A stretch of 64,000 bases of DNA from Burkholderiaceae bacterium (GTDB taxonomy: Bacteria > Pseudomonadota > Gammaproteobacteria > Burkholderiales > Burkholderiaceae_D). How positions within the stretch are numbered: the stretch's first letter is position 1; each line of letters begins with the position of its first letter. The position numbers and the translations under genes were made by a program. Positions 9,446 through 64,000 of the stretch are shown in pieces. The notes under the pieces are model-generated. The model ran no database searches. It was given only the letters and a program-made list of their open reading frames with translations, and was not told the origin of the DNA. The stretch spans positions 31,517-95,516 of the forward strand of contig JAOAUN010000055.1 of assembly GCA_030157545.1 (NCBI GenBank), in the 5' to 3' direction.

Positions 9446-9450
9446 TTTTT

Positions 9451-12918: not shown

Positions 12919-12919
12919 A

Positions 12920-13360
12920 TCAGCTATTTGCCAGCAACAGCGTGACCGTTGCCACGGTGCGGCCGCTACGGGTCATGGTGACGAGCACCTGCTTGCAGCC
13001 AGATGCCGGAACCGGACAAAGGGGACTGGAAGACGCACTGGTGATTTGTACGCTGCGCATCAGCGCGGTACCAGTTAGCGGATTTTCCATCGGATAGGCG
13101 CAACTGGCTGACACGGTAGCGCAGCTGGCGCTTTGCAATGGTACGTAGGCATAGCCGCGGTTTGGATTGCGCCGGTCCGCCAGCACCATTTCTGCACGCT
13201 CCTGCGCGTACTGCATGGCGCGCGATGACGCATCGATATCGGCGACTCGTTGCGCGGCTTCACGCGATACCGACAAGAGTGAAACGACGGCACCAAAAAA
13301 AACCACCATCAAGATGACCATCTCGATCAGGGTAAAGCCGCGCATGGTGTGCGTTTTCAT
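12920..13360 (-). CDS. minor pilin with prepilin-type N-terminal motif (MshD-like)
   Basis: MKTHTMRG|FTLIEMVILMVV with Glu5. ATGA overlap with the upstream gene. Confidence 0.7.
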   Translation of the reverse strand: MKTHTMRGFTLIEMVILMVVFFGAVVSLLSVSREAAQRVADIDASSRAMQYAQERAEMVLADRRNPNRGYAYVPLQSASCATVSASCAYPMENPLTGTALMRSVQITSASSSPLCPVPASGCKQVLVTMTRSGRTVATVTLLLANS

Positions 13361-13893
13361 TGATATACCGCAGTACTGACAAAGCCGGTGCCGGCCGCTA
13401 CGGTGACCGTGGCCATTAGTGTGCTGCCAACGAAAATTTGGTAAGTGGAACTGGCAGTCGCAAGCGGACGTCCGAGCAAGTCGAATTCAATTTCGGCAGG
13501 GCCGCTGAGTGAGACGCCGCTCTCGAGCGCAATGCAGAAAGGACCGTTATGCCCATGGTCGATGATGACTGCAGTGGGGTTCGGACAACTGGCGGCAGCC
13601 GGTGTGGCATTGCTGCATGCGGCGGGTGTGGAACAGGTGACGCGGTAACTTGCAGAGTCGGACTGGAATTTCAACGCCTTGCCCCATGAGAGTGCCAGCA
13701 TGCGGGTATGGCGCAAATTGTCAGCCAGTTTCAGGGCTTGGTAGCCGGCGGTGCTCTTGCCTGCACTGGGCATCATTTTCGGAATGACGTAGGCAGCGAG
13801 AATGCCGACCATGGACAGCACAATGATCAGTTGCATCAGTGTGAAGCCACTGTTGCCGTGGACTCGCTGGAATGCGGTGTCCCTGATGATCAT
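13357..13893 (-). CDS. minor pilin lacking Glu5 (MshC-like position)
   Basis: ...HGNSG|FTLMQLIIVLSMVGILAAYVIP has Gln at +5. Start ambiguous: ATG 13893 (MIIRDT...) is chosen over the TTG at 13920 used by the track. Confidence 0.6.
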   Translation of the reverse strand: MIIRDTAFQRVHGNSGFTLMQLIIVLSMVGILAAYVIPKMMPSAGKSTAGYQALKLADNLRHTRMLALSWGKALKFQSDSASYRVTCSTPAACSNATPAAASCPNPTAVIIDHGHNGPFCIALESGVSLSGPAEIEFDLLGRPLATASSTYQIFVGSTLMATVTVAAGTGFVSTAVYQ

Positions 13894-13942
13894 GAGTTTG
13901 TTCCATGGCCGGTGTTTCAATAGTTATCTGTAATGCTCGTAC

Positions 13943-14401
13943 TTAGCAACCAGTCAATGTAGTGGTGTAGTCAGGTGGCGTGGTCGCAGTTGCCGCGGTA
14001 TAGACCACCTTGCAGCTTGCCGGCGTGGTGGCGCCTGCATGCGAGACCGTGTTGGCTGTGGTGGTGGTGAAGTCCGAAGCCGGTGACAGGGTCACGCATT
14101 TGAGCAATTCGGTCGAATCAGCTGCATACCCATAGACTGTGCCAACGGTCGCATTGCAGGCCGAGACAGAACCGGTAGCACCACCCTGATTGGCGATCTG
14201 CGCTGCGGAATAAACGGCGGTATTGGCCGAGGCAAGACTGCCGGTCACGCCCTTGATGGTGGCAGCGCGTGCGTTGCCTGCCAGGTCAGTCATTTTTGGT
14301 AGTGCAATGGCTGCCAATATACCGATGATGACGATTACGATCACCAGCTCGATGAGCGTGAAGCCTTGATGTTTGTGCATGATGTGCAGTCGGGTGTTCA
14401 T
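13943..14401 (-). CDS. mshA: major type IV pilin (MshA-like)
   Basis: MNTRLHIMHKHQG|FTLIELVIVIVIIGILAAIALPK, 152 aa, first gene of the block. A strong AAGGAG lies 8 nt upstream of ATG 14401. Confidence 0.8.
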   Translation of the reverse strand: MNTRLHIMHKHQGFTLIELVIVIVIIGILAAIALPKMTDLAGNARAATIKGVTGSLASANTAVYSAAQIANQGGATGSVSACNATVGTVYGYAADSTELLKCVTLSPASDFTTTTANTVSHAGATTPASCKVVYTAATATTPPDYTTTLTGC

Positions 14402-14693
14402 GAAATGGCTCCTTGAAATAATTGCAAACTTGCGGGCAGCGTGGTCAACCCGACTGATATTTTTGAAGTCAGGCGGCGTGCCTTAACAGGGCGGGCGTAG
14501 CGATGTTTAAAAACCGCTGCTCGCCTTTCCGTATGACATAAGTTAATCCTGAGTGAGACTACTTAGTCAGTAGAAAAGAGGGGGAAAAGCAGTGTTGTTC
14601 GGGTACTTGAGGAATAGAAGTTGTTGCGATCTATGGCGAGAATTTTTTCCAGGGGGCGGAACGAAAGCGGTTGTAGCCGATTAGAATTGAACG

Positions 14694-15830
14694 CTAAATA
14701 ATATCGAGCCCAGCCGTGCCAGCAGCCAGATCACGGCTTTTCGATTCTTTGCCGTAGAGCTTCAATGCCAGCCGCAAGTCGTTCACGGAATCGGCATTGC
14801 GCAGCGCGTCTTCCATGGATATCTTGCCAGCCTCGACCAGGTCAAACAGCGCCTGATCGAAGGTCTGCATGCCAAGTTCGCGCGACTTTTTCATGATCTC
14901 CTTGATCTGGTGCACATCGCCTTTGAAGATCAGATCTGAAATGAGCGGAGAATTGAGCATGATCTCGACCGCGGCACAGCGTCCGTTACCCTCTTTCAGC
15001 GGGATCAGCCTTTGCGAAATCATGCCTTTCAGGTTCAGCGATAAATCCATCAGCAATTGCTGGCGCCGTTCTTCCGGAAAAAAATTCACGATCCTGTCCA
15101 GCGCCTGATTGCTATTGTTTGCATGCAGTGTGGCCAGACAGAGGTGGCCGGTTTCGGCAAAGGCAATTGCATGGTCCATTGTTTCACGGTCGCGGATTTC
15201 ACCGATCAGAATCACGTCCGGTGCTTGTCGCAAGGTGTTCTTGAGTGCGGTATGCCAGTCGGCGGTATCAGTGCCGATTTCGCGCTGTGTGATGATGCAA
15301 TTGATGTGCGGATGCACATACTCGATTGGATCTTCGATGGTAATGATGTGGCCGTGGCTGTTCGCATTGCGGTGCCCGATCATGGCCGCCAGCGTGGTCG
15401 ATTTGCCGGAGCCGGTTGCGCCTACCATGATCACTAAACCGCGCTTGGACATCACGACTTCTTTCAACACCTGCGGTACGTGCAATGCATCGAGTTCGGG
15501 AATATCGGTAGTAATGGTGCGCAGTACCATGCCGGCTTTTGCCTGCTGCACGAAAGCTGATACGCGGAAGCGGCCGATGTCGTCGGGGCTGATCGCGAAA
15601 TTGCATTCTTTCGAAATGTCGAATTCTACGCGCTGGCGTTCGTTCATGACTGCCTGCACCAGTGCTGCCGCATCGTCGGGCGACAGCGGTTGTGTTGATA
15701 CCGGCATCAGCTTGCCGCTGAATTTGATGGCAGGCGCAAAGCCGCTGGTGATGAACAGGTCGGAGCCGCCCTTGCTTTTCATCAGCCGCAAAAGCTCATG
15801 CATGAGTTTTTTTGCGCTGTCGGATTCCAT
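14694..15830 (-). CDS. pilU: PilT-family retraction ATPase PilU
   Basis: Walker A GATGSGKST, plus the ITIEDPIE and ILIGEIRD boxes. 378 aa, second of a pilT-pilU pair. Confidence 0.85.
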   Translation of the reverse strand: MESDSAKKLMHELLRLMKSKGGSDLFITSGFAPAIKFSGKLMPVSTQPLSPDDAAALVQAVMNERQRVEFDISKECNFAISPDDIGRFRVSAFVQQAKAGMVLRTITTDIPELDALHVPQVLKEVVMSKRGLVIMVGATGSGKSTTLAAMIGHRNANSHGHIITIEDPIEYVHPHINCIITQREIGTDTADWHTALKNTLRQAPDVILIGEIRDRETMDHAIAFAETGHLCLATLHANNSNQALDRIVNFFPEERRQQLLMDLSLNLKGMISQRLIPLKEGNGRCAAVEIMLNSPLISDLIFKGDVHQIKEIMKKSRELGMQTFDQALFDLVEAGKISMEDALRNADSVNDLRLALKLYGKESKSRDLAAGTAGLDII

Positions 15831-15833
15831 TTG

Positions 15834-16877
15834 TCAGCCCGCGAAGTTTTCAGGGGTCTTGGCAGCGCTGCGTGCCGTAGCCATGGAAATCTGGTTGCGC
15901 TTGACCAGATCCATCAGGCTTGCGTCCAGCGTCTGCATGCCGAAGCTGGCGCCGGTTTGTATGGCCGAATACATTTGCGCGACCTTCGCTTCGCGAATCA
16001 GGTTGCGTATCGCCGGTGTGCCCAGCATGATTTCGTGCGCGGCAACGCGGCCACTGCCGTCCTTGGTTTTCAGCAGCGTCTGCGAGATCACCGCCTGCAA
16101 TGATTCGGACAGCATCGCGCGCACCATTTCTTTTTCATCGCCGGGAAAGACATCGACAATCCGGTCTACCGTCTTGGCGGCCGATACCGTATGCAGTGTG
16201 CCAAACACGAGATGTCCGGTTTCTGCTGCCGACAAAGCCAACCGGATGGTTTCGAGGTCGCGCAATTCGCCGACCAGAATGACGTCCGGGTCTTCGCGCA
16301 GTGCCGAACGCAAGGCGGCAGAAAACGAATGCGTATGCGAGCCCACTTCACGCTGGTTGATCAGTCCTTTTTTCGATTCATGCACGAACTCGATCGGGTC
16401 TTCCACCGTCAGGATATGCGCGTATTCATTTTCATTGACATGATTGACCATCGCCGCCAGCGTGGTGGATTTGCCCGATCCTGTCGGGCCCGTCACCAGC
16501 ACCATGCCGCGCGGTTTCATCGCCAGGTCGGCAAAGATTTTGGGTGCATTCAGGTCTTCCAGAGTCAGGATTTTTGACGGGATGGTGCGCAGTACTGCTG
16601 CCGCACCTCGATCCTGGTTGAAGGCATTGACGCGGAAGCGCGCCAGGCCCGGAATCTCGAACGAAAAATCGACTTCAAGATGTTCTTCATACGTCTTGCG
16701 CAGCGCGTCGTTCATGACTTCATAAATCATGCCGTGCACGTCTTTGTGTTCCATCGCAGGCAAATTGATGCGCCGCACATCGCCGTTGACGCGAATCATG
16801 GGTGGCAAGCCAGCCGACAGATGCAGGTCGGAGGCCTTGTTCTTGACGGAGAAGGAAAGCAATTCGGTAAGGTCCAT
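15834..16877 (-). CDS. pilT: twitching-motility retraction ATPase PilT
   Basis: MDLTELLSFSVKNKASDLHLSAGLPPMIRVNGD..., GPTGSGKSTT, ILVGELRD and the AIRNLIRE motif. Confidence 0.9.
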   Translation of the reverse strand: MDLTELLSFSVKNKASDLHLSAGLPPMIRVNGDVRRINLPAMEHKDVHGMIYEVMNDALRKTYEEHLEVDFSFEIPGLARFRVNAFNQDRGAAAVLRTIPSKILTLEDLNAPKIFADLAMKPRGMVLVTGPTGSGKSTTLAAMVNHVNENEYAHILTVEDPIEFVHESKKGLINQREVGSHTHSFSAALRSALREDPDVILVGELRDLETIRLALSAAETGHLVFGTLHTVSAAKTVDRIVDVFPGDEKEMVRAMLSESLQAVISQTLLKTKDGSGRVAAHEIMLGTPAIRNLIREAKVAQMYSAIQTGASFGMQTLDASLMDLVKRNQISMATARSAAKTPENFAG

Positions 16878-23252: not shown

Positions 23253-23300
23253 TTTTTCCCTCAGTCCATGCTGTTTCCCTTCTATCACAGGAGTATTCGC

Positions 23301-24353
23301 ATGGACAATTCACCACCGATTCCACCGTCGGGCACCCGTATGCCCGAGCCACACAGGTCACCGCCTCAAGGTACGCCGCCGCAGCAAGTGCCGCCCCGTC
23401 GGCCCATGATGCAGCAATGGGTAGATGAGCTCAGTTCTGGTGAGGACTCCATCGAAGAACTATGGGCTATCCCGGCCGATGCAGAGCCGCACGACTGGAT
23501 GCACAGGCTGATGCCGCTGTCCCGTTTCTGTTGCGAGGCCGGCGAGCTGCTCGTTGAATGTGGCCCGGATGTCGTATTGGGACAAGCGAGGGTATTGCTG
23601 GAGCAGGGCGCCGCACTCAATGAAATTGACGCTGTTACCGGGCGCACGCCACTGCACTGGGTGTGCCACGGCGGCTGCGTAGAACTGCTGGCTTTCCTGT
23701 GCGAGCAAGGTGCGGCCCACATGCCGGACATGCTGGAGTGGAAGGATAACAAGGGTGCAACGCCCTTGTACCTGGCCATACAGTCTCCGCTGTTGACGCA
23801 ACCCGCACCGCTGATCGAATTCTTGCTGAAGCAGGGCGCGCAACTTGCGCAGTTGCCGAACCGGGGCAGTGAACTGCTGCATACCGATTTTTTGACGATC
23901 ACGATCGTCACCTATCTTGAGGCTGCAGGTATCAATATCGACGCAGGCGACCGCTTTCGCGAAACGCCGCTGCTGCGTGCCTGCACCGGCGGCAAGCTGG
24001 CGCTGGCTGAATACCTGCTGCAGCATGGCGCCAACCCCAACCCGCACGGGCTGTTTCAGCGCACCATACTGCATATTGGCGACCTGAAACCGGAGGCAGC
24101 CCTGCTGCTATTACGCAATGGCGCTGATGTCGATGTCAGCGACGAACTGGGCATGACGCCGCTCATGTATGCCATCAATTGCGAAAACATGGCGCTGGCA
24201 CGCGTTCTGGTGGAGCACGGCGCTTCCCTTTACAAAAAGTCGGTCGATGGCATGAGCGTGCTGGATCATGCAAGGCAGGCAGGCGAGTCTTTCACCTTTT
24301 TTATTGTCCAGAAAATGGGGCTGTTGCCTGACACCAGACCGGCATCCAGCTAA
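23301..24353 (+). CDS. ankyrin-repeat protein with proline-rich N-terminus; eukaryotic-like
   Basis: Several ANK units: TPLHWVCHGGCVELLAFLCEQGA, ETPLLRACTGGKLALAEYLLQHGANPN, MTPLMYAINCENMALARVLVEHGA. N-terminus is MDNSPPIPPSGTRMPEPHRSPPQGTPPQQVPPRRP. Start ATG 23301 has AGGAG 8 nt upstream. Confidence 0.8.
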   Translation: MDNSPPIPPSGTRMPEPHRSPPQGTPPQQVPPRRPMMQQWVDELSSGEDSIEELWAIPADAEPHDWMHRLMPLSRFCCEAGELLVECGPDVVLGQARVLLEQGAALNEIDAVTGRTPLHWVCHGGCVELLAFLCEQGAAHMPDMLEWKDNKGATPLYLAIQSPLLTQPAPLIEFLLKQGAQLAQLPNRGSELLHTDFLTITIVTYLEAAGINIDAGDRFRETPLLRACTGGKLALAEYLLQHGANPNPHGLFQRTILHIGDLKPEAALLLLRNGADVDVSDELGMTPLMYAINCENMALARVLVEHGASLYKKSVDGMSVLDHARQAGESFTFFIVQKMGLLPDTRPASS

Positions 24354-45715: not shown

Positions 45716-45809
45716 CGTCCAAATAGAAATGAATCATAGGGATTTATTGAACTCTCTCAGATGACTTGATACAAACGGCGCTCCAGAAATAGTCATCGTG
45801 AAGAGCCTT

Positions 45810-47054
45810 ATGTCATTCCACCCTTCCAGTACGCCTGTTCGACCTAAAGAAATCGTGAGCGAGAGCCAATCACCGGATTCAGAAGGGGCGGCCACGGGCA
45901 GTAAGCAGCCTGGTGAAACCGGGCAGCCCGTTTTAGAATCCCGACAGCCAATTGCACACCCTTTACGTATCAAAGATCTGAAGAGCGTTAAAAGCACATC
46001 AACAAATACATCAAAAAGCAAATCGTCTTACGCTTCCAGTGCCGCCGTCTTCAATGCCAGAAAAAGAATCCGGTTCGAGGTGGATGAGTCACAGGAGCTG
46101 ACACCCGAAATGTGCTCGGTGTTCAAAAAAATACAATCGGGCGAACTGGCATTTTTTGATCTTGTATCGGGCAATCGCACTGAGCGCGAGATTTACGGTA
46201 TCGATCTCGATATGGTGCATCCGGAAACCTTGCACACGCCGTTGACGCTGGCGCTGCAAAGCGGGCAAATCGGCATTGCTGTTTACTTGCTCGTACTCGG
46301 CGCCGATCCGCTGGGGCTGGATGGCCATGAGAAACCGCCGTCAGACTACGCCACAGCTTTGTGCAGAATGTTTCTGCGTTTTTTCAATCTGCGTCGCCAG
46401 TCTGCAGTTCGCATCGACAATTCGGAGCCGCGCAATCGCTTCCTTCAACTGCTCAATACGCTGGATGTTGGCAGTGGCCAAACGATGCTGAGCTGGGCAG
46501 TCATGCAGCGTCAGGACAAGGTGGCAGCGTTGCTGATTGCTGAAGGCGCTGATTATGTCAGCAGAAATGCCAGCGCTTACGCGCCGCTGGAAGTCGCTAC
46601 CCGTTGTGGCAGTTTGCGGATTGTGCGTGCCATGCTGGATCGCTGGCCGCAATTGGCAAGCCGGCCCAAGCTTCCGTATTTGAAGCAAGCCATTATTGGT
46701 GCCGTTGAAATGGACAGGCCGGCCATACTGGCTTGCCTGCTTAGTTTCTTTCGCGCAGAATTTCGTGCTGCCGAAGCGAGTGAAGACGAGGAGGACGTGG
46801 ATTCAATCGATCTGCACGAAATTATTCTGCGTAATTCGCAGACCGAAGATGATGCCTTCGAGTTTTTCATGAAAGCCAAACTGCCGCTGGCTTTGACTGT
46901 TCAGCAGCTCATGCGCAAGACCTCAAACAATTACCTGCTGACAGAACATGAATGCTGGCTGCTGGGACTGGAGAAAGCTGCACTGCTTGCCAAAAAAATG
47001 GGTCATCAGCGGATTCTGGAAATTATCGCAGCCCAGACCCTGCCGCGGAATTGA
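45810..47054 (+). CDS. ankyrin-repeat protein with Ser/Thr/Pro-rich disordered N-terminus; eukaryotic-like
   Basis: ANK units HTPLTLALQSGQIGIAVYLLVLGADP, GQTMLSWAVMQRQDKVAALLIAEGADY and YAPLEVATRCGSLRIVRAMLD. Start ambiguous: ATG 45810, or the GTG at 45798 used by the track. Confidence 0.7.
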   Translation: MSFHPSSTPVRPKEIVSESQSPDSEGAATGSKQPGETGQPVLESRQPIAHPLRIKDLKSVKSTSTNTSKSKSSYASSAAVFNARKRIRFEVDESQELTPEMCSVFKKIQSGELAFFDLVSGNRTEREIYGIDLDMVHPETLHTPLTLALQSGQIGIAVYLLVLGADPLGLDGHEKPPSDYATALCRMFLRFFNLRRQSAVRIDNSEPRNRFLQLLNTLDVGSGQTMLSWAVMQRQDKVAALLIAEGADYVSRNASAYAPLEVATRCGSLRIVRAMLDRWPQLASRPKLPYLKQAIIGAVEMDRPAILACLLSFFRAEFRAAEASEDEEDVDSIDLHEIILRNSQTEDDAFEFFMKAKLPLALTVQQLMRKTSNNYLLTEHECWLLGLEKAALLAKKMGHQRILEIIAAQTLPRN

Positions 47055-51489: not shown

Positions 51490-53727
51490 ATGACCCGGCG
51501 ATTGCTCTTCTTACAATCCAGTCTGCCCAAGCAAGTGACTGCCATTGCAGTCTTCTTTGCCGTGGGCGCAGCCCCTGCCAGTGCGCAGCAAGCTGCACCC
51601 GCGCCAGTCAATGATGAGCGTGATCCGCCGCTGCAGATGGAAGCCGAAAAAATGACCGGTCGCCCCGATCGCGAAGTCAAGCTTGAACGCGATGTCGTCA
51701 TCCGGCGCGGCATCACCACCATTGAATCTGATTCCGTGAACTACAACATCGTTGATGATAAGGTCGATGCAGTAGGCAATGTGGAGATTGATCGCGCCGG
51801 CGACCATTACAGCGGCACAGAGCTGCATCTGAAGATGGATACCGGCGTGGGCACCATGAATAGTCCGGTCTACCAGCTGATGCGAAAAAATGCGCGCGGC
51901 AGCGCCGAGCGCGTTGACTTTGAATCCGAAGATTCGGCCACTATTGTGTCCGGCATTTATACGACGTGTGAAGGTCCGAACCCCGACTGGTATCTGAAGT
52001 CCAGCAAGCTGAGCCTTGATAACAGCACTGAAACAGGCGTCGCGCGCGATGCCGTTCTGGTTTTCAAGGGCTTGCCGATAGCGGGCACGCCTTACATTTC
52101 CTTTCCGCTGACCGATGAGAGGGTGTCCGGTTTTCTGGCGCCGAGCATTGCGACGTCGACCACTGGTGGTCTGGAAGTCATGACACCGTACTACCTCAAC
52201 ATTGCACCGAACCGTGACCTGACCATTTATCCACGCTACATTTCACGTCGTGGTCTGATGCTGGGAGGGGATGCCCGTTATATAGGCCAGACTTATTCGG
52301 GTTCAACCCGTGCTGAATGGCTCAATAATGATGCGATTACAGGCGAGCAGCGCTATGCCTTGTCGTCCATTCACAGACAAAATCTGGCGCCGGGACTGAA
52401 TTATTATTCCGACCTGAACTTTGCTTCCGATAACGAATACCCGAAAGACTTTCCGCTCACGCGTACCCTGGCCAACCGCCGCCTGTTGTTGCGCAATGTT
52501 CAGCTCGACTACGCAGCCAGCGACTGGACCGCAGCAATTCGTGTCGCTGACTATCAGGTACTGCAAGACCCGCTGGCAACAATTGTGTCGCCCTATGGAC
52601 GCTTGCCTCAATTGCTTTACTCGCGCTTTGGTTATAACGACAGCGGCCTGAGCTGGAATTTTGCTTCCGAGATGACCCGCTTTACCCATTCAACCTTGGT
52701 CGCGGGTGATCGTCTGGTACTCAACCCGCGCGTCAGCTATGCATGGAATCGGCCGGGCTTTTTCGTGCGTCCCAGCATGTCGCTGCATGGCACGCTCTAT
52801 AATCTTAATAATGTGAGTGATCCGGCCGTGATGACTGCGCCTACGCGCGTGTTGCCGACCGTATCACTGGACACGGGCCTGATATTTGAACGCAATGCGA
52901 CTTTCTTTGGTCGTGACGCCTTGCAGACGCTGGAGCCGCGCCTGTTTTATTCGTACACACCGTATAAGCAGCAGGACGCATTGCTGTATCCTACTTTCGA
53001 TTCCAGCGAGGCAGACTTCAACTATGCGCAAGTGTTTCGCGAAAACCGTTTTGTCGGTAATGACCGTATCGGCGATTCCAATCAGGTGACGGCCGCGCTG
53101 ACGTCGCGCTTTATTGAACTTAATGGCATGGAGCGCGTCAGGGTTGCAGTGGCGCAGCGCTTCTCGATGGCCGAGCAACGCGTGATACTGGGCGTGCCGA
53201 CCAACACGCCCGCTGCCACAGCGGAAACCCGCTCCGATATTTTGTTGCTGACATCGGGCCGCATTACCAATGAATTGCGTGTGGATGCCAACATGCAGTA
53301 TAGCCAGGCGCTTAACGAAGTTAATCGCGTCAACTTTGGCACCTACTGGCAGCCTGAGGCGATGAAGTTATTGAATTTTCAGTATCGGCGTGATGTTCGC
53401 AACACGACTAACAGTGCAGCGACCAATTTCGAGTTGATCGACATATCGGGCCAATGGCCATTGTCACATCGCTGGTACGGTGTGGGTCGCATTAACTATT
53501 TGTTGAAAGATAAAAAGCTGGGGCAGTCCCTGCTTGGTCTTGAATACAAAGCTGATTGCTGGATTTTCCGTTTTGTAAGTCAGCAGATTCCAACTGCGGT
53601 AGGCGTTGCCAACACCACGTTTTTTATACAATTGGAATTTAACGGGCTATCTAGCCTCGGTTCCGATCCTATGCGCGCATTGCGCAACAACGTGCCCGGC
53701 TATCAGCGGCTGAATCAGCAGCAGTAA
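51490..53727 (+). CDS. lptD: LPS-assembly outer-membrane protein LptD
   Basis: 745 aa with a signal peptide and an OstA-like N-domain (...MEAEKMTGRPDREVKLERDVVIRRG...). Large barrel. lptD-surA-pdxA-rsmA synteny. Confidence 0.9.
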   Translation: MTRRLLFLQSSLPKQVTAIAVFFAVGAAPASAQQAAPAPVNDERDPPLQMEAEKMTGRPDREVKLERDVVIRRGITTIESDSVNYNIVDDKVDAVGNVEIDRAGDHYSGTELHLKMDTGVGTMNSPVYQLMRKNARGSAERVDFESEDSATIVSGIYTTCEGPNPDWYLKSSKLSLDNSTETGVARDAVLVFKGLPIAGTPYISFPLTDERVSGFLAPSIATSTTGGLEVMTPYYLNIAPNRDLTIYPRYISRRGLMLGGDARYIGQTYSGSTRAEWLNNDAITGEQRYALSSIHRQNLAPGLNYYSDLNFASDNEYPKDFPLTRTLANRRLLLRNVQLDYAASDWTAAIRVADYQVLQDPLATIVSPYGRLPQLLYSRFGYNDSGLSWNFASEMTRFTHSTLVAGDRLVLNPRVSYAWNRPGFFVRPSMSLHGTLYNLNNVSDPAVMTAPTRVLPTVSLDTGLIFERNATFFGRDALQTLEPRLFYSYTPYKQQDALLYPTFDSSEADFNYAQVFRENRFVGNDRIGDSNQVTAALTSRFIELNGMERVRVAVAQRFSMAEQRVILGVPTNTPAATAETRSDILLLTSGRITNELRVDANMQYSQALNEVNRVNFGTYWQPEAMKLLNFQYRRDVRNTTNSAATNFELIDISGQWPLSHRWYGVGRINYLLKDKKLGQSLLGLEYKADCWIFRFVSQQIPTAVGVANTTFFIQLEFNGLSSLGSDPMRALRNNVPGYQRLNQQQ

Positions 53728-57278: not shown

Positions 57279-57312
57279 TTTGCATCCTTTCAAGTTTTGC
57301 CAAGGATGCAAA
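57279..57312 (+). promoter_or_regulatory. 11-bp perfect inverted repeat covering the SD of the ABC exporter gene
   Basis: tttgcatcctt (57279-57289) and aaggatgcaaa (57302-57312) with a 12-nt loop. The right arm contains AAGGA and abuts GTG 57313. Confidence 0.5.
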
Positions 57313-59445
57313 GTGATATCAAGTATCAGCCGTTCAAAGCGATCAGCGCCCGACTGTGTCGCTCTTGATACGCAACATTTGCTCTGGGCGCTCGCTAGTC
57401 TGTGTGCGATAAAGAGGATACCCTTCGATGCAGAACTCTTCCTGCGTCAATTCCCACCACCTTATACGACTGATACCTTGCTGCAGGCAGCACGTGATTT
57501 GGGCCTGCGCATCAAACGCAAGCGGCGCGCACTCACAGCGCTAGATCACCGCTGCCTGCCGTGCCTGGCACTACGCATCACGGCAGCAGATGAGCGAGCC
57601 AGCCTGGACCTGATCACCGATGTCACGCCCGAACAGATCGTTTTTTTTGCCGCAAGCGAGAACGCCAGCACAACGCAGTCATGTGGCGATTATGCGACCG
57701 ACTATAGCGGCATCGTATTTCTGGTCGTAGGCGTAAGCTCGCCGCAGCAAGATCCGGATGCGCCAGCAGTCGGGTCGCAATTCGGCTTTCGCTGGTTCTT
57801 GCCTGAATTGCTCAAGCATCGCCGCGTCTGGCGCGATGTCTTGCTGGGCTCGCTGGTCCTGCAATTGCTTGCGCTGGCTACTCCCTTATTTACGCAAGCT
57901 ATTATTGATAAAGTAGTCGTACATCGCACCACCAGTACCTTGCTCGTGATTGGTATTGCGCTGGCCGTGTTCATGTTTTTCTCTGCGCTGCTTGGATGGG
58001 CGCGGCAAATCCTGTTACTCCATACCGGTAATCGCGTCGATGCCGTACTGGCGATGACGGTGTTCAAACACTTGTTCAATTTGCCGCCGCGTTATTTCGA
58101 GAAGCGACCGACTGGTGTCATTGCCGCGCGATTGCAAGCAGTCGAAACCATACGAGAATTCATTGCCAGCACGGCCGTCGCATTGATACTCGATATTCCA
58201 TTCCTGATTATTTTCATCGGCATCATGTTCTGGTACAGCGTCATGTTGACGTTGATCGCTTTATCAGTACTCACAGCTATTGCCTTGCTCAGCATGGCGA
58301 TCGCACCCTTATTCCAGTCGCAACTGAATCAGCAATTTCTGCTGGGCGCGCGCAATCAGGCTTTCATCACGGAATATATTGCCGGCGTCGAAACCGTCAA
58401 AAGCCTGCAATTGGAACCGCAATTGCAGGCGCGCTATGCCGTCTTTCTGGGCGACTATCTGAATGCGACATTCAAGACACGCCAACTGGCCAATCTTTAC
58501 AACACTATCGCCGGCACGCTCGAGCAGTTGATGAAACTACTGATTCTGATTGTGGGTGCGTATATCGCCATGCAAAGTACGGAGTTCACCATCGGCATGC
58601 TGGTCGCGTTCCAGATGTTTGCCGGTAATTTGTCGAGCCCGATGATGCGACTGGTCGGCCTGTGGCAGCAGTTCCAGCAAGCGCGTCTGTCAGTCACGCG
58701 CCTGGGCGATGTCATGAACGCGCCCAGCGAGCCGTATTCGATACTGCCAGTCAGGGCAGGACAAGGTTCTGGCAATATCGAGATTGAAGGACTGGCATTT
58801 CGGCATAGCGACAAGCATCCGTGGCTGTACCGCGATTTCAATCTCGTCATGCCTGCGGGTAGCAGGATTGCATTAATGGGGCCATCAGGCTCGGGCAAGA
58901 GCACCTTCGCCAAACTGCTGCAGGGTTTCTACCAGGCCGAAGGCGGACGCATACGCATAGACGGCACTGACATTCATAATATGTCAGCCAATGCCTTGCG
59001 CAGTTACTTCGGCGTTGTGCCACAAGAAACCGTCCTGTTCTCCGGCACCCTCTACGAGAACCTGCTGGTAGCCAGCCCGCATGCCGGCTTCGAAGAAATC
59101 ATGCATGCCTGCATGTTGGCTGAAATCCACGACACGATCGAACAACTGCCAGATGGTTACCAGACTGCCATCGGCGAGCGCGGGGCTGGTTTGTCTGGCG
59201 GCCAGCGGCAGCGCATTGCCATTGCACGCGCATTGCTGAAGCGGCCGCAGATCCTGATCTTCGATGAAGCGACCAGCGCTCTCGATGCCGACACAGCTGC
59301 GCAATTTGCCCGCACTATCAACCACCTGCAAGGGCAGGTCAGCATGCTGTTCATAACGCATGCGCTGCCACCCGGCTTGAAAATAGACAGAGTAATTTAT
59401 TTGCAGCCAGAGCCTGCGCTGGCAGTGGATGGAGTCCGCTCATGA
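57313..59445 (+). CDS. HlyB-like type I secretion ABC transporter with N-terminal C39-like (apparently non-catalytic) domain
   Basis: N-domain ...DTQHLLWALASLCAIKRIPFDAELFLRQF...LLQAARDLGLRIKRKR...LPCLAL aligns by eye with the HlyB C39-like domain. 6-TM domain; Walker [37 protein letters not shown]. The track start at 57280 is a TTG; GTG 57313 has an AAGGA SD. Confidence 0.8.
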   Translation: MISSISRSKRSAPDCVALDTQHLLWALASLCAIKRIPFDAELFLRQFPPPYTTDTLLQAARDLGLRIKRKRRALTALDHRCLPCLALRITAADERASLDLITDVTPEQIVFFAASENASTTQSCGDYATDYSGIVFLVVGVSSPQQDPDAPAVGSQFGFRWFLPELLKHRRVWRDVLLGSLVLQLLALATPLFTQAIIDKVVVHRTTSTLLVIGIALAVFMFFSALLGWARQILLLHTGNRVDAVLAMTVFKHLFNLPPRYFEKRPTGVIAARLQAVETIREFIASTAVALILDIPFLIIFIGIMFWYSVMLTLIALSVLTAIALLSMAIAPLFQSQLNQQFLLGARNQAFITEYIAGVETVKSLQLEPQLQARYAVFLGDYLNATFKTRQLANLYNTIAGTLEQLMKLLILIVGAYIAMQSTEFTIGMLVAFQMFAGNLSSPMMRLVGLWQQFQQARLSVTRLGDVMNAPSEPYSILPVRAGQGSGNIEIEGLAFRHSDKHPWLYRDFNLVMPAGSRIALMGPSGSGKSTFAKLLQGFYQAEGGRIRIDGTDIHNMSANALRSYFGVVPQETVLFSGTLYENLLVASPHAGFEEIMHACMLAEIHDTIEQLPDGYQTAIGERGAGLSGGQRQRIAIARALLKRPQILIFDEATSALDADTAAQFARTINHLQGQVSMLFITHALPPGLKIDRVIYLQPEPALAVDGVRS

Positions 59446-59909
59446 TTATCCGCTTTGCCCATGTCAGCGACATACCGGCGTGCATAGAGCTCGGTCGACA
59501 GCTACATCAGATGACACGTTTTTCCCGCTACGGGTTTGAGCCTGAGCGCATTGCGACCAGCCTGCATGCACTCATCACCGTCGGGCAGGAGCAGAAGCGC
59601 AGCCATTGTCTTCTGCTGGCAGAAAATCGTGGCGCGCAACTGACGGGTTGTTTGCTCGCCTGCATAGAGCGACATATTTTCTCCGACCAACCGGTCGCAA
59701 GCGTCATCACCTTCGGCGTACTGCCGCAAAATCGTATGGGTGGCACAGCCCTTAAATTATTGGAAGCGTTTAAACGGTGGGCGCAGAATCGTGGCGCATT
59801 TGAAATCAATGCCGGTGTCAACAGCGGCTTGCACATAGATAAAACAGATCGACTCATGAAGCGTCTTGGCTTTGAGGCTACCGGCGGAAATTACACATTA
59901 CGTTTGTAG
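59442..59909 (+). CDS. GNAT-family N-acetyltransferase
   Basis: 155 aa. Acetyl-CoA motif A VLPQNRMGGTALKLLEAFKRWAQNRGA and a C-terminal ...MKRLGFEATGGNY. Its ATG overlaps the ABC exporter stop (ATGA). Confidence 0.7.
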   Translation: MIIRFAHVSDIPACIELGRQLHQMTRFSRYGFEPERIATSLHALITVGQEQKRSHCLLLAENRGAQLTGCLLACIERHIFSDQPVASVITFGVLPQNRMGGTALKLLEAFKRWAQNRGAFEINAGVNSGLHIDKTDRLMKRLGFEATGGNYTLRL

Positions 59910-59930: not shown

Positions 59931-60599
59931 ATGCTCAGGAAATTGACACAGCAAGATATCGATATCCTGCAAACTTATCAGATTAAAGGGCAGTGCGATC
60001 GTTATTGGAAATATCTCGCCAACCTTGGCGAACGCTATGCAGCATTGTCCCCGGGTGTAGTGTTCGATGAAAACGATGATGGTGCGCCACTGCGTCATTT
60101 TTACTGGACCCAGTACCGCGGCGCAAACGGCGAAAAACCAGACAACAACGAGCGTAGTCGATTTGGTCATGCGTTGATGCGCGTAGACATCGCCCAGCGT
60201 AGCGTGTTGTTACAAGCAGGCGAAAAAAAGTCTGCGCTTCATTTATCGGCCTCACATATTTATCATCAGCATAAGCGCGTACTGCGCTATAGAAACTGCT
60301 GGACGCCCATGCAAATACTGCAGCCGTTTTATGACAGTCCCAATCCGAATGTCAATATCGCGCAGAAGATCTGGGATTCGTTTGTCGATATGGCTGATAT
60401 CTATGCTGAACAGACCACCCTATCTGAGATTTTGGGATCGATCTCTCTTTTTCAGGCACATCTATTTTGGTTGGCCAAACAAGATCCGCGCGCTCTTAAT
60501 CAACGGGTGATGCACTGGATTGAGTCCGACATCTTGCCGGTCATGATGGCGGCAGCAACGGATGCTGATACTGATCCTGATTCAAGCCCCGATCAGTAA
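59931..60599 (+). CDS. hypothetical protein (222 aa), first gene of a repeated 3-gene module
   Basis: ATG with an AGAGG SD, no recognisable domain, acidic D/P/S-rich tail. A decayed second copy of its 3' end lies at about 61339-61424. Confidence 0.5.
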   Translation: MLRKLTQQDIDILQTYQIKGQCDRYWKYLANLGERYAALSPGVVFDENDDGAPLRHFYWTQYRGANGEKPDNNERSRFGHALMRVDIAQRSVLLQAGEKKSALHLSASHIYHQHKRVLRYRNCWTPMQILQPFYDSPNPNVNIAQKIWDSFVDMADIYAEQTTLSEILGSISLFQAHLFWLAKQDPRALNQRVMHWIESDILPVMMAAATDADTDPDSSPDQ

Positions 60600-60666
60600 G
60601 TCAGCAATCGATATTCGTTAAATAAATTTATCCATTTACTGAAATACATTCCGAATAACTAGTCTT

Positions 60667-61158
60667 ATGAAATTACTGCATTCAATACTTTTAAGAATTG
60701 CAATCGCTACCATTGTTTGCGTACTTGCTTCTTGTTCGACAGCTGGGCCAAAGGTAGTTTTCCATTCATTTGAATTTAATGCGAACTGGGATAGCCCTGA
60801 CATTGAAGTGCTTGATTACAAATACGGGAATTCAAAGAATCCGGGAACGCATCCACCTGATTGGGCATACGAGACCGGACAGATAGCACAAAGATCAGCG
60901 ACCGGTGGATATATGTTGCTCGGCGATTTTCTTTACGTGAAATGGCGACTGAAAGGAGCGAGCAAGATTTACGAAGCGAATGTTGATCTGCGTAGTCGCT
61001 TACCTAAAAACATGTTGGACAACACAATTTATTTTGTAGTCAGAGGACCTCAGCTGTACGTCTATCTGATTACACCAAAACATCTACCTCCCGGTGCGCC
61101 ATCAAACGGATTGCGCATGTACGGGTCGCGCATAATAAAAACGCTGTATCCAGATTAA
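60667..61158 (+). CDS. lipoprotein (163 aa), candidate immunity protein
   Basis: MKLLHSILLRIAIATIVCVLASC has an LASC lipobox. Paralogue of 61492-61977, sharing LDY+YG.S..P..PDWA, LYVKWR, VYLI and YP. Confidence 0.65.
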   Translation: MKLLHSILLRIAIATIVCVLASCSTAGPKVVFHSFEFNANWDSPDIEVLDYKYGNSKNPGTHPPDWAYETGQIAQRSATGGYMLLGDFLYVKWRLKGASKIYEANVDLRSRLPKNMLDNTIYFVVRGPQLYVYLITPKHLPPGAPSNGLRMYGSRIIKTLYPD

Positions 61159-61176
61159 TTTAATTGAGAATTTGTT

Positions 61177-61424
61177 GTGGCCGGTCGTGTGGCAGATAAG
61201 TCAAGGCACTAGAAATATTCAACATCAGCCAACACAAGCCGATGCAATTGCTATTGAAAATATTTCGCTACCCTTGGCGAATGCTTTGCAGTTTTTGACC
61301 CTTGGTGTCGCTATTAATTGCTAGTGCAAGATTGTACGGTGCTGGATTGAGCTCGACTCTTGCCAGTCATGATGGCAGCGGCAACGCATACAGAACTGAT
61401 CCTGATTCAAGACCCGATCAGTAA
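61177..61424 (+). pseudogene. chimeric gene remnant: 5' fragment resembling the 62020 toxin gene fused to the 3' end of a second copy of the 222-aa gene
   Basis: 61177-61260 resembles the first ~28 codons of the 62020 ORF. It shares ATTCAA-N18-GATGCAATTG (translating TRNIQHQPTQADAIAI versus TKQEIQAQVQQVDAIV) but has a stop and a frameshift. 61339-61424 is near-identical to 60512-60599, the end of the 222-aa gene including its TAA. Confidence 0.45.
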
Positions 61425-61491
61425 GTCAGTAATCGATATTCGTTAGATAGATTTATCTATATACAGAAATATATTCCAGATAACTGGCCTT

Positions 61492-61977
61492 ATGAAATTA
61501 CTGCATTCAATACTTTTAAGAATTGCAATAAGTACCATTGCTTGCGTGCTTACTTCATGTTCAACAACTGAAGGTAGGGTTGTTGAGCATGGTTTTGGTT
61601 TTGATGTTCGTCGTGCTAATCCAAGTGTAGAAATTCTCGATTACCGCTATGGCGATTCCAGTTTTCCGGTAAGAGCTCCAGACTGGGCCGTAAAAGAAGG
61701 TAAGAAATTTTATTTTAACAACGTGTATGGAGCGATGAGAGTTGCAGATGTTTTATACGTTAAATGGCGAATCGAAAATTCTGAAAAAATCAATGAGGAA
61801 TTCATTAATTTAAAGAGTCGAATGCCTGCTGATTTAAAAGGCCAAATAGTCTACTTCGACATCAATGAGGCAGAACTTTCTGTGTATTTGATTTCCCGAA
61901 AATTACGATCACCGGAAATGGAAAAGATCGGCCCGGAGATGTATCAGTCACGAGTAGTAAAGAAAATTTATCCTTGA
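61492..61977 (+). CDS. lipoprotein (161 aa), paralogue of 60667-61158, candidate immunity protein
   Basis: MKLLHSILLRIAISTIACVLTSC has an LTSC lipobox. The signal peptide and about 70 nt of upstream DNA are near-identical to copy 1. The mature part is strongly diverged. Confidence 0.65.
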   Translation: MKLLHSILLRIAISTIACVLTSCSTTEGRVVEHGFGFDVRRANPSVEILDYRYGDSSFPVRAPDWAVKEGKKFYFNNVYGAMRVADVLYVKWRIENSEKINEEFINLKSRMPADLKGQIVYFDINEAELSVYLISRKLRSPEMEKIGPEMYQSRVVKKIYP

Positions 61978-62019
61978 GCCACTTCTTGGCTTGCTAATTA
62001 GGTTCATAGGGAAACGAAA

Positions 62020-64000
62020 ATGACCGCTCGCTTTGCCGGAAGTTTGACTAAACAAGAAATTCAAGCACAAGTACAGCAGGTAGATGCAATTGTGAATTCA
62101 GCGGTGAGGACGGTGGGGGCGGAAGAATTTGTATTCTTGGCTGCATTTGATGGAACGAGAAATGATAAAAATGATATTCCGAGAGGGGAGGTTGGTACCA
62201 ATATCGCTCAATTGTGGGAGCAATATAGTACTAGTGTTTCTAAAAGTTCAGAATCCGGCGGTGGATATTATGCAGGACCCGGAACAGTAAATTCTCTAGA
62301 AGGTTCAGCGTTTCTCCCTGTTCAAGTAACACAGGAGGCTGTAAATACTGCAAATAGAGCATACAAAAATTTCCAATTTCAGGCAGTTGAATGGCTTAAG
62401 GATCACCCCGGGGGATCTATTGCAACTGCTATCACTGCATTCAGCAGAGGCGCTAGCGCAGCAGTCATTTTTTCTCAGCTGGTTTTCGAGCGAGGTTTGA
62501 CGGATCCTGCTACAGGAGCAATCCTCATCCCTCCCGGTGACGTCAAATTCGCCGGTGGTATTTTGTTCGATCCGGTCATGACTGGCGTAATGGGAAATAT
62601 GACGTTCCCGCCCAATACGCAAAATCTTGTCGTCATCCGTGCTTCCAGTGAATACCGCGGCATGTTCAATGCGGCGGATTATTCGAATCAACCTGGCGCC
62701 ACTACTTTTGATTTCATTGGCAATCACGCCAACATAGGCGGCTCCTACCTGAATGACAATATATCCGCATTGGTACTCGAAGCCGGGACGGGTTTCTTGC
62801 AAAGATTAGGTGTCACAATCAGTGACGTGCCTGCCCAACGAAAATTTGTGCCCGATAGCGTTGTGTTCGTACGTGATGAAGGAATCGACACTTACGGACA
62901 AACTATCTGGAGTACCTACGGCACTTACGGTGAGTATAAAGGCCCTCGTTTAACCGACAAGGTCGCCAGTTTTCCGGTCGTTTCGGATGATGGCAGCGTC
63001 AGAAGCTTTACCGATTACGCTGGAAGGCTAGTCACTTATAGTAAAACGCAGAATGCTGAAACCGGCACTAAAAGCGTGGTGACAATCAAGGACTACTTTA
63101 ACGCTACCACCAGTGTCGTTATGAATCGCGACTTCAATTCTGATGGTAATCCTGATCAATTTGAACTGATCAGAACCGATAGCGACGGCAGCAAAACCCA
63201 TGTCATACAGGATCTTGATAGCGCAAGAATTGTCGCCGATGAGCTAGCTTATCGCACTGATGCTACCAATAAATTTACCGAAGTCCAGCATTCAATCTAT
63301 GGCGTAGTCGTCAATCGCAGCTTCATCGAGGGCGAGGTCACGCAGACTGAGCTGGATAAAATCCGCAATAATGTGCCGCGCGATTTCCGTGAGTCCGGAA
63401 ATCAGGATGGGGTTTCACTGTATTCCAATTCTTTAAATACAAAAGGCATCGTCAATCTCGCAGCGCGGGTCGCTGAAAAATTCGCTGAAGTTCAGCTCGC
63501 AGCATATTTGGAAAATGTTCAGTACACGGCGGACGGTTCGCCTGCATTTTTCCCGATATCAGCGTCTCTTACGCCAGCAATGGAAATGCTACTTCAGTTT
63601 GAACTGAAGTCTTTTACCAGTAATGGCCGCGTCGATGTCAGACTGAACGATAAAAATCAGCTTGTCATAGCCAGCGTCAATCGTGAAATCATCATTGATG
63701 AAAATGGCGAAGTCTGGCGCCACTATCGTGACACACAAAATGGTGAAGTTATCGAACAGGCAGACAGTAATGGACAACTACTGACGCGTGTTAGCTTCAG
63801 TACCAGACAGGATGGCAGTGCAGCGCCCTTGCCTGTGACGACTATCGACTATTTCGACAAAGGCCAGCCCTATGCAAGGATTGCAACGACGACCCAGTCG
63901 AATGCATTAAGGCAGACCACGCTAAAACTCGCCGCGGATAAAGATAGCTTCACTGCAGACTACATCGACGCCCGACTCGTCAAGATCACGCACGCCACCA
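62020..64000 (+). CDS. large protein with N-terminal DUF2235 / Tle1-like alpha/beta-hydrolase (phospholipase-effector) domain; 3' end outside window
   Basis: I read 660 codons from ATG 62020 to the window end with no stop. An in-frame TAG lies at 61999 and AGGGA lies upstream. The ORF is missing from the track because it has no stop. Motifs in DUF2235 order: FVFLAAFDGTRND, GTNIAQLW, YYAGPGT, ITAFSRGASAAVIFSQLV (nucleophile-elbow type AFSRG). Confidence 0.65.
   Translation, partial: MTARFAGSLTKQEIQAQVQQVDAIVNSAVRTVGAEEFVFLAAFDGTRNDKNDIPRGEVGTNIAQLWEQYSTSVSKSSESGGGYYAGPGTVNSLEGSAFLPVQVTQEAVNTANRAYKNFQFQAVEWLKDHPGGSIATAITAFSRGASAAVIFSQLVFERGLTDPATGAILIPPGDVKFAGGILFDPVMTGVMGNMTFPPNTQNLVVIRASSEYRGMFNAADYSNQPGATTFDFIGNHANIGGSYLNDNISALVLEAGTGFLQRLGVTISDVPAQRKFVPDSVVFVRDEGIDTYGQTIWSTYGTYGEYKGPRLTDKVASFPVVSDDGSVRSFTDYAGRLVTYSKTQNAETGTKSVVTIKDYFNATTSVVMNRDFNSDGNPDQFELIRTDSDGSKTHVIQDLDSARIVADELAYRTDATNKFTEVQHSIYGVVVNRSFIEGEVTQTELDKIRNNVPRDFRESGNQDGVSLYSNSLNTKGIVNLAARVAEKFAEVQLAAYLENVQYTADGSPAFFPISASLTPAMEMLLQFELKSFTSNGRVDVRLNDKNQLVIASVNREIIIDENGEVWRHYRDTQNGEVIEQADSNGQLLTRVSFSTRQDGSAAPLPVTTIDYFDKGQPYARIATTTQSNALRQTTLKLAADKDSFTADYIDARLVKITHAT

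Follow-up and report, generated by a model that had tools for sequence, protein, structure and literature searches.

A 64,000-nt stretch of the genome of a Burkholderiaceae bacterium (contig JAOAUN010000055.1, positions 31,517 to 95,516; hereafter the window) ends inside a large gene that probably encodes an antibacterial RTX toxin. The gene is part of an operon downstream of lptD-surA-pdxA-rsmA, which contains genes for an ATP-binding cassette (ABC) exporter, a GNAT acyltransferase, the small protein orf222, two predicted lipoproteins (orf163 and orf161), the toxin, and a HlyD-type adaptor, or membrane fusion protein (MFP). The features of the locus are listed in the table.

The frame beginning at position 62020 translates into 660 codons with no stops and is open to the end of the window, as the original prediction from the sequence had stated. 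The supplied list of open reading frames (ORFs) shows only short antisense ORFs in this region (62305-62802, 62475-62669, and 63589-63777), which had also been pointed out; the toxin ORF is missing from the mechanical lists because these leave out any ORF that continues past the end of the source. The 3' end of the gene was taken from a public 498-kb contig (NCBI GCA_030157425.1, JAOAUV010000035.1; L081 below) that is 100% identical to the window across all 1,981 bases of 62020-64000. The gene called on L081 is 7,584 nt long and encodes 2,527 aa. The claim of an ORF of more than 660 codons was therefore right about the open frame, while the true length is 2,527 codons and the window holds only the start of the gene, its first 26%.

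An orthologue of the toxin, P0044 at locus L087, is 72-78% identical. The ratio of nonsynonymous to synonymous substitution rates (dN/dS) between the two is about 0.09 overall, where dS is saturated, and 0.17 over the lipase domain, indicating that the gene is under purifying selection relative to this orthologue. The gene call on an identical contig, the known orthologue, and the low dN/dS together indicate that the frame is a real gene. The best match among GTDB representative genomes is 48% identical. The host is an uncultured betaproteobacterium of the Burkholderiales type, whose SecD shares 86-87% identity with the nearest named entries, every one of them a metagenome-assembled genome. 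The GC content is 0.43-0.48 at 60001-64000, a stretch that takes in the 3' part of orf222, the candidate immunity genes, and the toxin gene's 5' part, compared to about 0.56 in the remainder of the window. The GC content of the ABC and GNAT genes (58-60 kb) is close to the genome average (0.537). The drop fits horizontal acquisition of the candidate immunity genes together with the start of the toxin gene.

Table. Features of the toxin locus (window coordinates unless L081 is named; ~ marks approximate boundaries)
Feature	Position	Strand	Remarks
HlyB-like type I secretion ABC exporter	57280..59445	+	ORF from TTG 57280; public call starts at 57313, 710 aa
GNAT acyltransferase	59442..59909	+	155 aa; start overlaps ABC stop by 4 nt
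orf222, stand-alone homologue of the Smlt3024 N-terminal toxic domain	59931..60599	+	222 aa; NF050128, 9P3H
Direct repeats bounding the orf163 cassette	60515-60745, 61342-61572		~231 bp; cover upstream leader and signal-peptide coding region
orf163, paralogous predicted lipoprotein	60667..61158	+	lipobox L-A-S-C; second or orphan immunity candidate
orf161, predicted lipoprotein	61492..61977	+	lipobox L-T-S-C; candidate cognate immunity protein
RTX toxin gene, 5' part (aa 1-660)	62020..64000	+	1,981 nt of 7,584-nt gene; rest on L081, 10529-18112
Tle1-like (DUF2235) alpha/beta-hydrolase head, aa ~36-290	62125..62889	+	invariant columns, family profile, AlphaFold2 model
Predicted triad codons S142, D184, H236	62443-62445, 62569-62571, 62725-62727	+	
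Start of acidic delivery scaffold, aa ~324-660 in window	62989..64000	+	collinearity; contains DFNSDGNPD loop and YD-like hairpins
Junction codons of the two self-processing modules	L081 13802-13807, 15149-15154		aa 1091-1092, aa 1540-1541

The N-terminal part of the toxin is a predicted lipase. The motifs quoted in the original prediction are all present, in the order and at the positions given there: DGTRN (aa 44-48), TNIAQLW (60-66), YYAGPGT (83-89), and AFSRGA (140-145), and further along the protein DFNSDGNPD (371-379) and the stretch DENGEVW...TRVSF (560-593). The Pfam model for DUF2235, PF09994, which had been suggested as a check, falls below its gathering threshold of 27 bits on the single sequence. 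Its score is 21.1 bits for the 660-aa fragment and 23.6 bits for aa 1-340 tested separately, and the alignment spans positions 6-124 of 287 in the model, which is its N-terminal half only. A single-sequence search of aa 1-340 against PDB also gave nothing significant. The DUF2235/Tle1-like call is nonetheless correct, and it is settled by relatives, a family profile, and a structure model rather than by the PF09994 score.

The model is matched by 53 of 54 short relatives at E<=1e-3, and close homologues exceed the threshold. A profile of the head family matches the PDB sequences 9J3F (E 3.9e-14), 6SJL (1.8e-12), and 4O5P (1.5e-8), and the motifs FDGTxN, GFSRGAA, FDxVA, and GxHSxxGGGY, which include the nucleophile elbow and the Asp and His motifs, align in 9J3F and 6SJL. 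Within the family the columns D44-G45-T46-x-N48, F141-S142-R143-G144, D184, and H236 are invariant or nearly so. The AlphaFold2 model of the head has a predicted local distance difference test score (pLDDT) of 74.6 and a predicted template modelling score (pTM) of 0.78. In a Foldseek search it matches 4O5P (two chains), 4M0M, and 9J3F, all of them DUF2235 structures, with E-values of 1.6e-8 to 1.5e-6 and probability 1.0. No other PDB structure matches at E<=1e-3, generic cutinases and thioesterases lying above 1e-3. On this evidence the head is a Tle1-like Ser142-Asp184-His236 hydrolase with predicted activity. The original prediction was correct that Ala replaces the first Gly of GxSxG; this is ordinary variation and no defect, since the first residue of the nucleophile elbow can be A, S, or G across the family.

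Many of the short Tle1-like relatives (about 440-465 aa) from Methylophilaceae-type genomes (L004, L008, L009, L011, L013, and others) share a conserved tail of about 120 aa ("...NIEQGNLP..."). Pfam identifies this tail as neither XVIPCD nor RTX, and it could be a delivery signal of an unrecognised kind. Pfam finds XVIPCD, the domain that VirD4 of the Xanthomonadales-like killing type IV secretion system recognises, in only 6 of the 54 short relatives.

The head is followed by an acidic scaffold. The region from aa ~324 to 720 is without a database match: there was no Pfam, NCBIfam, or PDB sequence match to the scaffold, and a sequence search of aa 300-1100 against PDB gave nothing significant. 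The part of the scaffold within the window is 20-36% identical to the corresponding region of P0047 and P0048, two proteins with different heads, and the toxin is collinear with these from aa ~324/371 onward despite the differing heads. Alignment to P0045 starts at aa 562 and to the giant gene of locus L085 at aa 661. The original prediction described a long uncharacterised C-terminal region. It is indeed without a known domain, but it is not C-terminal, being the start of an RTX delivery scaffold of about 2,200 aa. A "YD/RHS-reminiscent" stretch had also been proposed, but it has no RHS or YD match in Pfam, and an RHS element at aa 560-593 was rejected for lack of Pfam support. The start of the scaffold holds at most one or two YD-like hairpins.

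A helical hydrophobic module comes next. In the structure model, seven long helices form a bundle at aa ~736-915, with a strongly hydrophobic stretch of about 36 aa (Kyte-Doolittle values up to 2.25), and aa ~920-1085 form a compact alpha/beta domain that is modelled with confidence (pLDDT above 90). There was no Pfam, NCBIfam, or PDB sequence match to the module. Faint matches to seven-helix rhodopsin-like folds were not counted as evidence. In CyaA and diphtheria toxin, a catalytic domain is followed by a translocation domain and a receptor-binding domain. The position of the helices between the head and the receptor-like domains recalls this order, which suggests that the seven-helix module may be a device for membrane insertion or translocation.

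Two self-processing modules (SPMs) follow, at aa 1092-~1230 and aa 1541-~1705. Both match the solved SPM of FrpC, 6SJW and 6SJX (E 2.3e-25 and 6.2e-24, respectively, for 6SJW), and both keep tryptophans aligned with W451 and W519 of FrpC. The scissile Asp-Pro is absent, and the residue before the first Pro is basic in each module (R1091-P1092 and K1540-P1541). The same is true of the family at large: across the 154 proteins analysed, the junction residues number R 53, K 40, and D 2. In FrpC, Ca2+-dependent folding strains the bond between Asp414 and Pro415, and the Asp side chain attacks its own carbonyl to form an anhydride, which cross-links to lysines (PMC7078468). Every engineered or natural SPM tested to date cleaves at Asp-Pro (PMC12538545). 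With R or K in place of the reactive Asp, the SPMs of the toxin would be unable to use the known clip-and-link chemistry. The R/K-junction SPMs form a distinct subclass by sequence and most likely act as Ca2+-triggered folding modules or as structural modules. An external protease might still cleave them at the conserved basic residue.

Between the two SPMs lie Big_9 and cadherin-like domains (aa ~1270-1500), amounting to about two Ig/cadherin-like domains. RTX repeats occupy about 600 aa from aa ~1735 to 2340, with 15 stretches matching PF00353 (HemolysinCabind, E 1.5e-61) and 18 strict GGxGxDxUx nonapeptides between aa 1735 and 2331 on L081. A C-terminal tail of about 190 aa follows the repeats. 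The whole protein has a single cysteine in 2,527 aa, and its N-terminus (MTARFAGSLTKQEIQ...) is without a hydrophobic signal sequence.

The genes around the toxin point to type I secretion. The ABC exporter has ABC_membrane and ABC_tran domains and scores 571.7 bits with TIGR01846 (type_I_sec_HlyB), below the cutoff of 725. Directly 3' of the toxin gene on L081 is the gene for a HlyD-type adaptor of 444 aa, which scores 335.1 bits with TIGR01843 against a curated cutoff of 208.65. Extension of the contig with a search for RTX repeats and an MFP, proposed in the original prediction, was thus carried out on L081, and it was decisive: both were found. The prediction had listed the HlyB-like exporter as the only secretion gene nearby. 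The exporter stands, but the HlyD adaptor also adjoins the toxin gene, beyond the end of the window. The statement that no VgrG, PAAR, or Hcp gene is visible holds true both for the scanned window ORFs, which include no gene for these or any other part of a type VI secretion system (T6SS) or type IV secretion system (T4SS), virB and virD4 included, and for the called genes of L081, which include no T6SS gene; the 2.4 kb downstream of the toxin gene on L081 have no T6SS or T4SS gene. The RTX repeats, the ABC exporter, and the HlyD adaptor identify the predicted export route as type I secretion. They contradict the T6SS framing of the toxin and settle the route, which the original prediction had left open, in favour of a dedicated type I secretion system (T1SS) rather than a T6SS.

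The GNAT gene is a core gene of the operon. The protein scores 20.9 bits with PF00583 (Acetyltransf_1; cutoff 20.7), its matches in PDB are only to classical GNATs of the AAC(6') and Naa20 types, and the motif QxxGxG/A is present as QNRMGGTA. An activating acyltransferase of the HlyC/CyaC type was considered and rejected, as only classical GNATs were matched. An orthologue that is 59% identical has the same position in locus L089, and there are homologues in L001, L014, and L024. By this conservation, GNAT belongs to the core of the operon and not to the cargo. It probably modifies the toxin or its export, although this is the weakest step in the interpretation.

The two lipoproteins upstream of the toxin gene are candidates for its cognate periplasmic immunity proteins. 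They have near-identical signal peptides and diverged mature parts, and orf161 has no Pfam, NCBIfam, or PDB match. In a tblastn search of 80 loci encoding relatives of the lipase head, 49 have a lipoprotein homologue that shares the strand of the Tle1-like gene and ends 15-213 nt upstream of it, and it is because of this association that the lipoproteins are proposed as immunity proteins. Several loci have two or three tandem copies. The pairing holds for stand-alone lipases of about 340 aa, for forms of about 450-570 aa, for XVIPCD-type forms, and for giant RTX forms, so the lipoprotein goes with the lipase domain and not with the delivery module. A periplasmic lipoprotein would be useless for the cytoplasm of a T1SS producer, so the toxin would have to arrive at the periplasm from outside, and its targets would then be Gram-negative bacteria, siblings included. 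The gene for orf163 lies on an 827-bp cassette that is absent from L082, which is otherwise 98-99% identical. The cassette is bounded by direct repeats, and immunity cassettes seem to be gained or lost by recombination at the conserved leader.

A further toxin-related gene, orf222, lies between the GNAT and immunity genes. The protein matches NF050128 (E 1.4e-11, model positions 4-164 of 436) and PDB entry 9P3H (E 8.4e-10), and it has neither an XVIPCD nor an RTX body. No FrpD/Smlt3025-like partner was seen. Possibly an earlier swap of cargo left orf222 behind as a vestigial or orphan head.

The body of the toxin belongs to a large family in which the N-terminal heads are highly variable. With aa 290-1090, only three word-sharing relatives were found among 5.8 billion proteins. 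With a profile of the helical module (aa ~700-1091), the number of representative clusters matched among 1.84 billion is 261 at E<=1e-3 and 103 at E<=1e-30. Most of the proteins bearing the module are 2,000-4,500 aa long. The module usually begins at a distance of 300-850 residues from the N-terminus, with SPM1, SPM2, and RTX repeats after it. A Tle1-like head is present in about 12 of the 154 analysed members. The N-terminal regions of 85 complete members fall into 34 unrelated clusters. Heads recognised by Pfam include Lipase_3/Mbeg1-like domains and Ntox44, and most heads have no match.

Comparison with a related operon shows that the head and the gene upstream of it are exchanged together. 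P0047 (2,565 aa) is collinear with the toxin from aa ~324 to the end, with 54.7% identity over 2,221 aa, but has a different head, a lipase of the GHSLGG type. Its gene is at the same chromosomal site in L089, in the order lptD-surA-pdxA-rsmA-ABC-GNAT-X-toxin-MFP-glyoxalase-YgjP. Identity to the operon of the window and L081 is 60% for the ABC exporter, 59% for GNAT, 63% for the MFP, and 75% for RsmA, whereas X is an unrelated protein of 313 aa with its own N-terminal hydrophobic segment. The same site with an orthologous exporter, GNAT, toxin body, and MFP but a different head and X gene shows that the head and the upstream gene were swapped as a unit, and it places the junction between head and body at about aa 320. 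At L085 (1-12574) there are an IS-type transposase fragment, a truncated cassette (P0045), a gene for a 136-aa protein without a signal peptide, and an intact giant gene. P0045 has its own head and scaffold and stops inside SPM1, while the giant gene codes for 2,493 aa or more and has a third head, with a Gly/Ala-rich hydrophobic stretch of its own. This looks like an arrangement with an orphan N-terminal cassette. A variable N-terminal tip with immunity genes upstream, the mirror image of the usual arrangement, fits a secretion signal at the C-terminus.

Overall it appears probable that the operon encodes a 2,527-aa polymorphic antibacterial RTX toxin that is exported by its dedicated T1SS. 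The unfolded toxin would leave the cell C-terminus first through the ABC exporter, the MFP, and a TolC-like channel encoded elsewhere, and it would fold when the RTX repeats and SPMs bind extracellular Ca2+. The part with the Ig/cadherin-like domains and RTX repeats would bind a neighbouring Gram-negative cell, and the helical hydrophobic module would insert into the envelope of the target and help the lipase to reach the periplasm. There the N-terminal lipase would hydrolyse membrane phospholipids. Siblings would be protected by orf161 and orf163, as periplasmic lipoproteins anchored in the outer membrane.

Several points weigh against this interpretation. The 3' three-quarters of the toxin gene come from a near-identical strain, outside the window. 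PF09994 is below threshold on the toxin sequence alone. The helical part of the hydrophobic module was modelled with moderate confidence (pLDDT 60-74), and a fold search with the module found no significant structural neighbour, the best E-value being 0.44. We know of no route by which a protein released by a T1SS crosses the outer membrane of a target cell. There is no TolC-like gene at the toxin locus. The lipoprotein family was not detected by tblastn beside the more distant Xanthomonadales relatives.

The alternative that survives best is an anti-eukaryotic RTX cytotoxin similar to CyaA or MARTX, which would carry a phospholipase into protist or host cells, the lipoproteins having some other role. 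It is suggested by the CyaA-like order of enzyme, hydrophobic helices, and RTX repeats, by the conserved gene of the acyltransferase superfamily, and by ankyrin-repeat and leucine-rich repeat (LRR)-like proteins elsewhere in the window, which hint at interaction with eukaryotes. However, GNAT is of the classical acyl-CoA type rather than a HlyC/CyaC activator, and a periplasmic lipoprotein partner that co-varies with the head is sensible only if the toxin reaches a bacterial periplasm. Some proteins related to the head are effectors that carry an XVIPCD and belong to bacteria-killing T4SSs, and the other heads include Ntox44, a polymorphic toxin domain. A eukaryotic target is considered unlikely.

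The giant size, the Ig/cadherin-like extenders, the RTX repeats, and the T1SS operon are also features of surface adhesins of the LapA/MpIBP type. In T1SS adhesins the N-terminal domain, which emerges last, may stall in the channel; here, once folded, it would plug the T1SS as a retention module, and the lipase would be structural or would act on the surface of the producer itself. Against an adhesin, there are about two Ig/cadherin-like domains and no long extender arrays, the catalytic triad is invariant, and hypervariable toxin-type heads with co-varying upstream genes are unlike adhesins. No di-alanine motif of the LapG type was noticed by eye near the N-terminus, and the operon has no LapD/LapG-like genes. 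These differences make an adhesin distinctly improbable.

The leading idea of the original prediction, a Tle1-family phospholipase effector of a T6SS encoded elsewhere, can be set aside with little hesitation: the DUF2235 fold and motifs are common to T6SS Tle1 proteins, but no T6SS gene is present among the scanned window ORFs or the called genes of L081, the protein has about 600 aa of RTX repeats, its gene has that of a T1SS ABC exporter on one side and that of a HlyD adaptor on the other, and its size of 2,527 aa and its architecture are unlike those of known Tle1 cargo effectors. An effector of a Xanthomonadales-like bacteria-killing T4SS (X-Tfe) is just as improbable: an XVIPCD forms the C-terminus of P0009, of P0010, and of 6 among the 54 short relatives, the lipoprotein upstream matches the pattern of X-Tfe and their immunity proteins, X-Tfi (PMC6536674), and orf222 resembles the X-Tfe Smlt3024, yet no segment of the 2,527-aa protein contains an XVIPCD (PF20410), its C-terminus consists of RTX repeats and a T1SS-type tail, and no virB or virD4 was seen in the window.

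The antibacterial RTX toxin proposed here resembles several known systems in part. Like FrpC, FrpA, and ApxIVA, it is a T1SS RTX protein in which a functional N-terminal domain is followed by an SPM and then by RTX repeats, and as with FrpC and FrpD, the latter an outer-membrane lipoprotein, a lipoprotein gene adjoins the toxin gene. It differs from FrpC in having two SPMs, both without the scissile Asp-Pro, so that it is not classed as a clip-and-link protein, and in having a helical/hydrophobic module of about 390 aa directly before SPM1, a recognisable lipase head, and GNAT in the operon. The immunity candidates show no sequence relationship to FrpD. In 2019 Bayer-Santos et al. reported homology between Smlt3024, an effector of the Xanthomonadales-like T4SS (X-T4SS), and the N-terminal regions of about 220 RTX proteins, as well as a resemblance of the immunity lipoprotein of Smlt3024 to FrpD, and they hypothesised that FrpC and FrpD are an antibacterial effector-immunity pair of the T1SS (PMC6759196). 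No experimental description of an antibacterial T1SS RTX toxin with immunity genes was found in the open-access literature, only this hypothesis.

The head shares the DUF2235 fold and the motifs FDGTxN, GxSRGA, FDxVA, and GxHxxxGGxY with Tle1 proteins (PA3290/4O5P, EAEC Tle1/6SJL, and TleB/9J3F). It also shares their predicted logic of action in the periplasm, with a periplasmic immunity protein corresponding to Tli1. Unlike Tle1, it is a compact domain of about 290 aa whose Pfam match is confined to the N-terminal half of the model, is fused to an RTX body, and would be exported by a T1SS. The immunity family is different from Tli1 and has no database match.

Sgro et al. include DUF2235 among the head domains of X-Tfe, and L036, L037, and L042, loci with relatives of the head, lie on X-T4SS-bearing contigs listed there (PMC6536674). 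The X-Tfe/X-Tfi pairs have the same repertoire of N-terminal toxin domains (DUF2235, Lipase_3, DUF2974, and Smlt3024) and an immunity lipoprotein gene immediately upstream, but they carry a C-terminal XVIPCD of about 120 aa, where the toxin has an RTX scaffold of about 2,200 aa. The conserved body, hypervariable tips, co-varying adjacent gene, and orphan or truncated cassettes are shared with the polymorphic toxins CdiA, Rhs, and MafB. In classical polymorphic toxins, however, the tip is C-terminal and the immunity gene is downstream, whereas this toxin carries its tip at the N-terminus and has the candidate immunity genes on its upstream side. In the survey of Zhang et al. (2012), DUF2235 is listed as a lipid-targeting toxin domain, and T1SS is not among the trafficking modes. 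Bordetella CyaA likewise has an N-terminal enzyme, a hydrophobic helical region, RTX repeats, a T1SS signal (putative in the toxin), and a gene of the acyltransferase superfamily. The toxin differs from it in that its hydrophobic module matches no solved structure in sequence or in fold, its acyltransferase is a GNAT of the classical kind and not CyaC/HlyC, and its candidate immunity lipoproteins point to bacterial targets.

A broader proposal is more tentative, with the balance tilting somewhat against it. The locus may be one allele of an undescribed and widespread T1SS polymorphic toxin system, comprising at least 260 protein clusters, that is the mirror image of the contact-dependent inhibition (CDI) and Rhs systems. 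It would have interchangeable N-terminal heads of the Tle1-like, class-3 lipase, and Ntox44 types and about 30 more of unknown type, each paired with an immunity gene upstream. The heads would share a common RTX body with a new seven-helix hydrophobic translocation module and non-cleaving Arg/Lys-junction SPMs, served by a conserved GNAT. The T1SS would then be a general route of interbacterial delivery into the periplasm of neighbours, of which FrpC/FrpD is one instance.

The T1SS is usually associated with host-directed RTX cytotoxins, adhesins, proteases, and small bacteriocins. To our knowledge it is not usually tied to modular effector-immunity warfare of the kind found with the T4SS, the type V secretion system (CDI), the T6SS, and the type VII secretion system. 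The locus provides bioinformatic support for a largely unstudied T1SS-based form of attack between bacteria. Its head family also serves bacteria-killing T4SSs, and its RTX body takes dozens of alternative heads at one fixed junction. If the interpretation is true, T1SS joins the delivery routes of polymorphic toxins, and the function of FrpC-like RTX proteins, long unresolved, would have an explanation. It would also add two new parts, a helical hydrophobic module without a structural relative and an SPM subclass without the Asp-Pro site. The features that are new compared to the 2019 idea are the enzymatically recognisable head, the co-varying immunity family, the swap junction, the scaffold module, and the non-cleaving SPM subclass. 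The R/K-junction SPMs may be relevant to protein engineering of the NeissLock type, as they would separate Ca2+-triggered folding from cleavage. The heads without a Pfam match supply many candidates for new toxins, each accompanied by a predicted immunity gene.

A few other features of the window were observed. Two ankyrin-repeat proteins and two weak LRR-like proteins are encoded at 23268-24353, 45798-47054, 1108-2346, and 2444-3700, all on the + strand. They sit among housekeeping genes, and no link to the toxin locus was found. The one other machine in the window that spans the envelope is encoded by a type IV pilus/MSHA-like assembly cluster at about 3754-16877 on the - strand, which includes genes for a secretin, MshE-like and PilT-like ATPases, a T2SSF platform protein, and pseudopilins. 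In the 10.5 kb preceding the toxin start, L081 differs from the window at 43 positions, and 41 of these are concentrated in about 470 bp at the 5' end of lptD (51506-51979). Apart from two positions, the window otherwise matches L081 from 52 to 64 kb. The cluster of differences in lptD resembles a short recombination tract between closely related strains.

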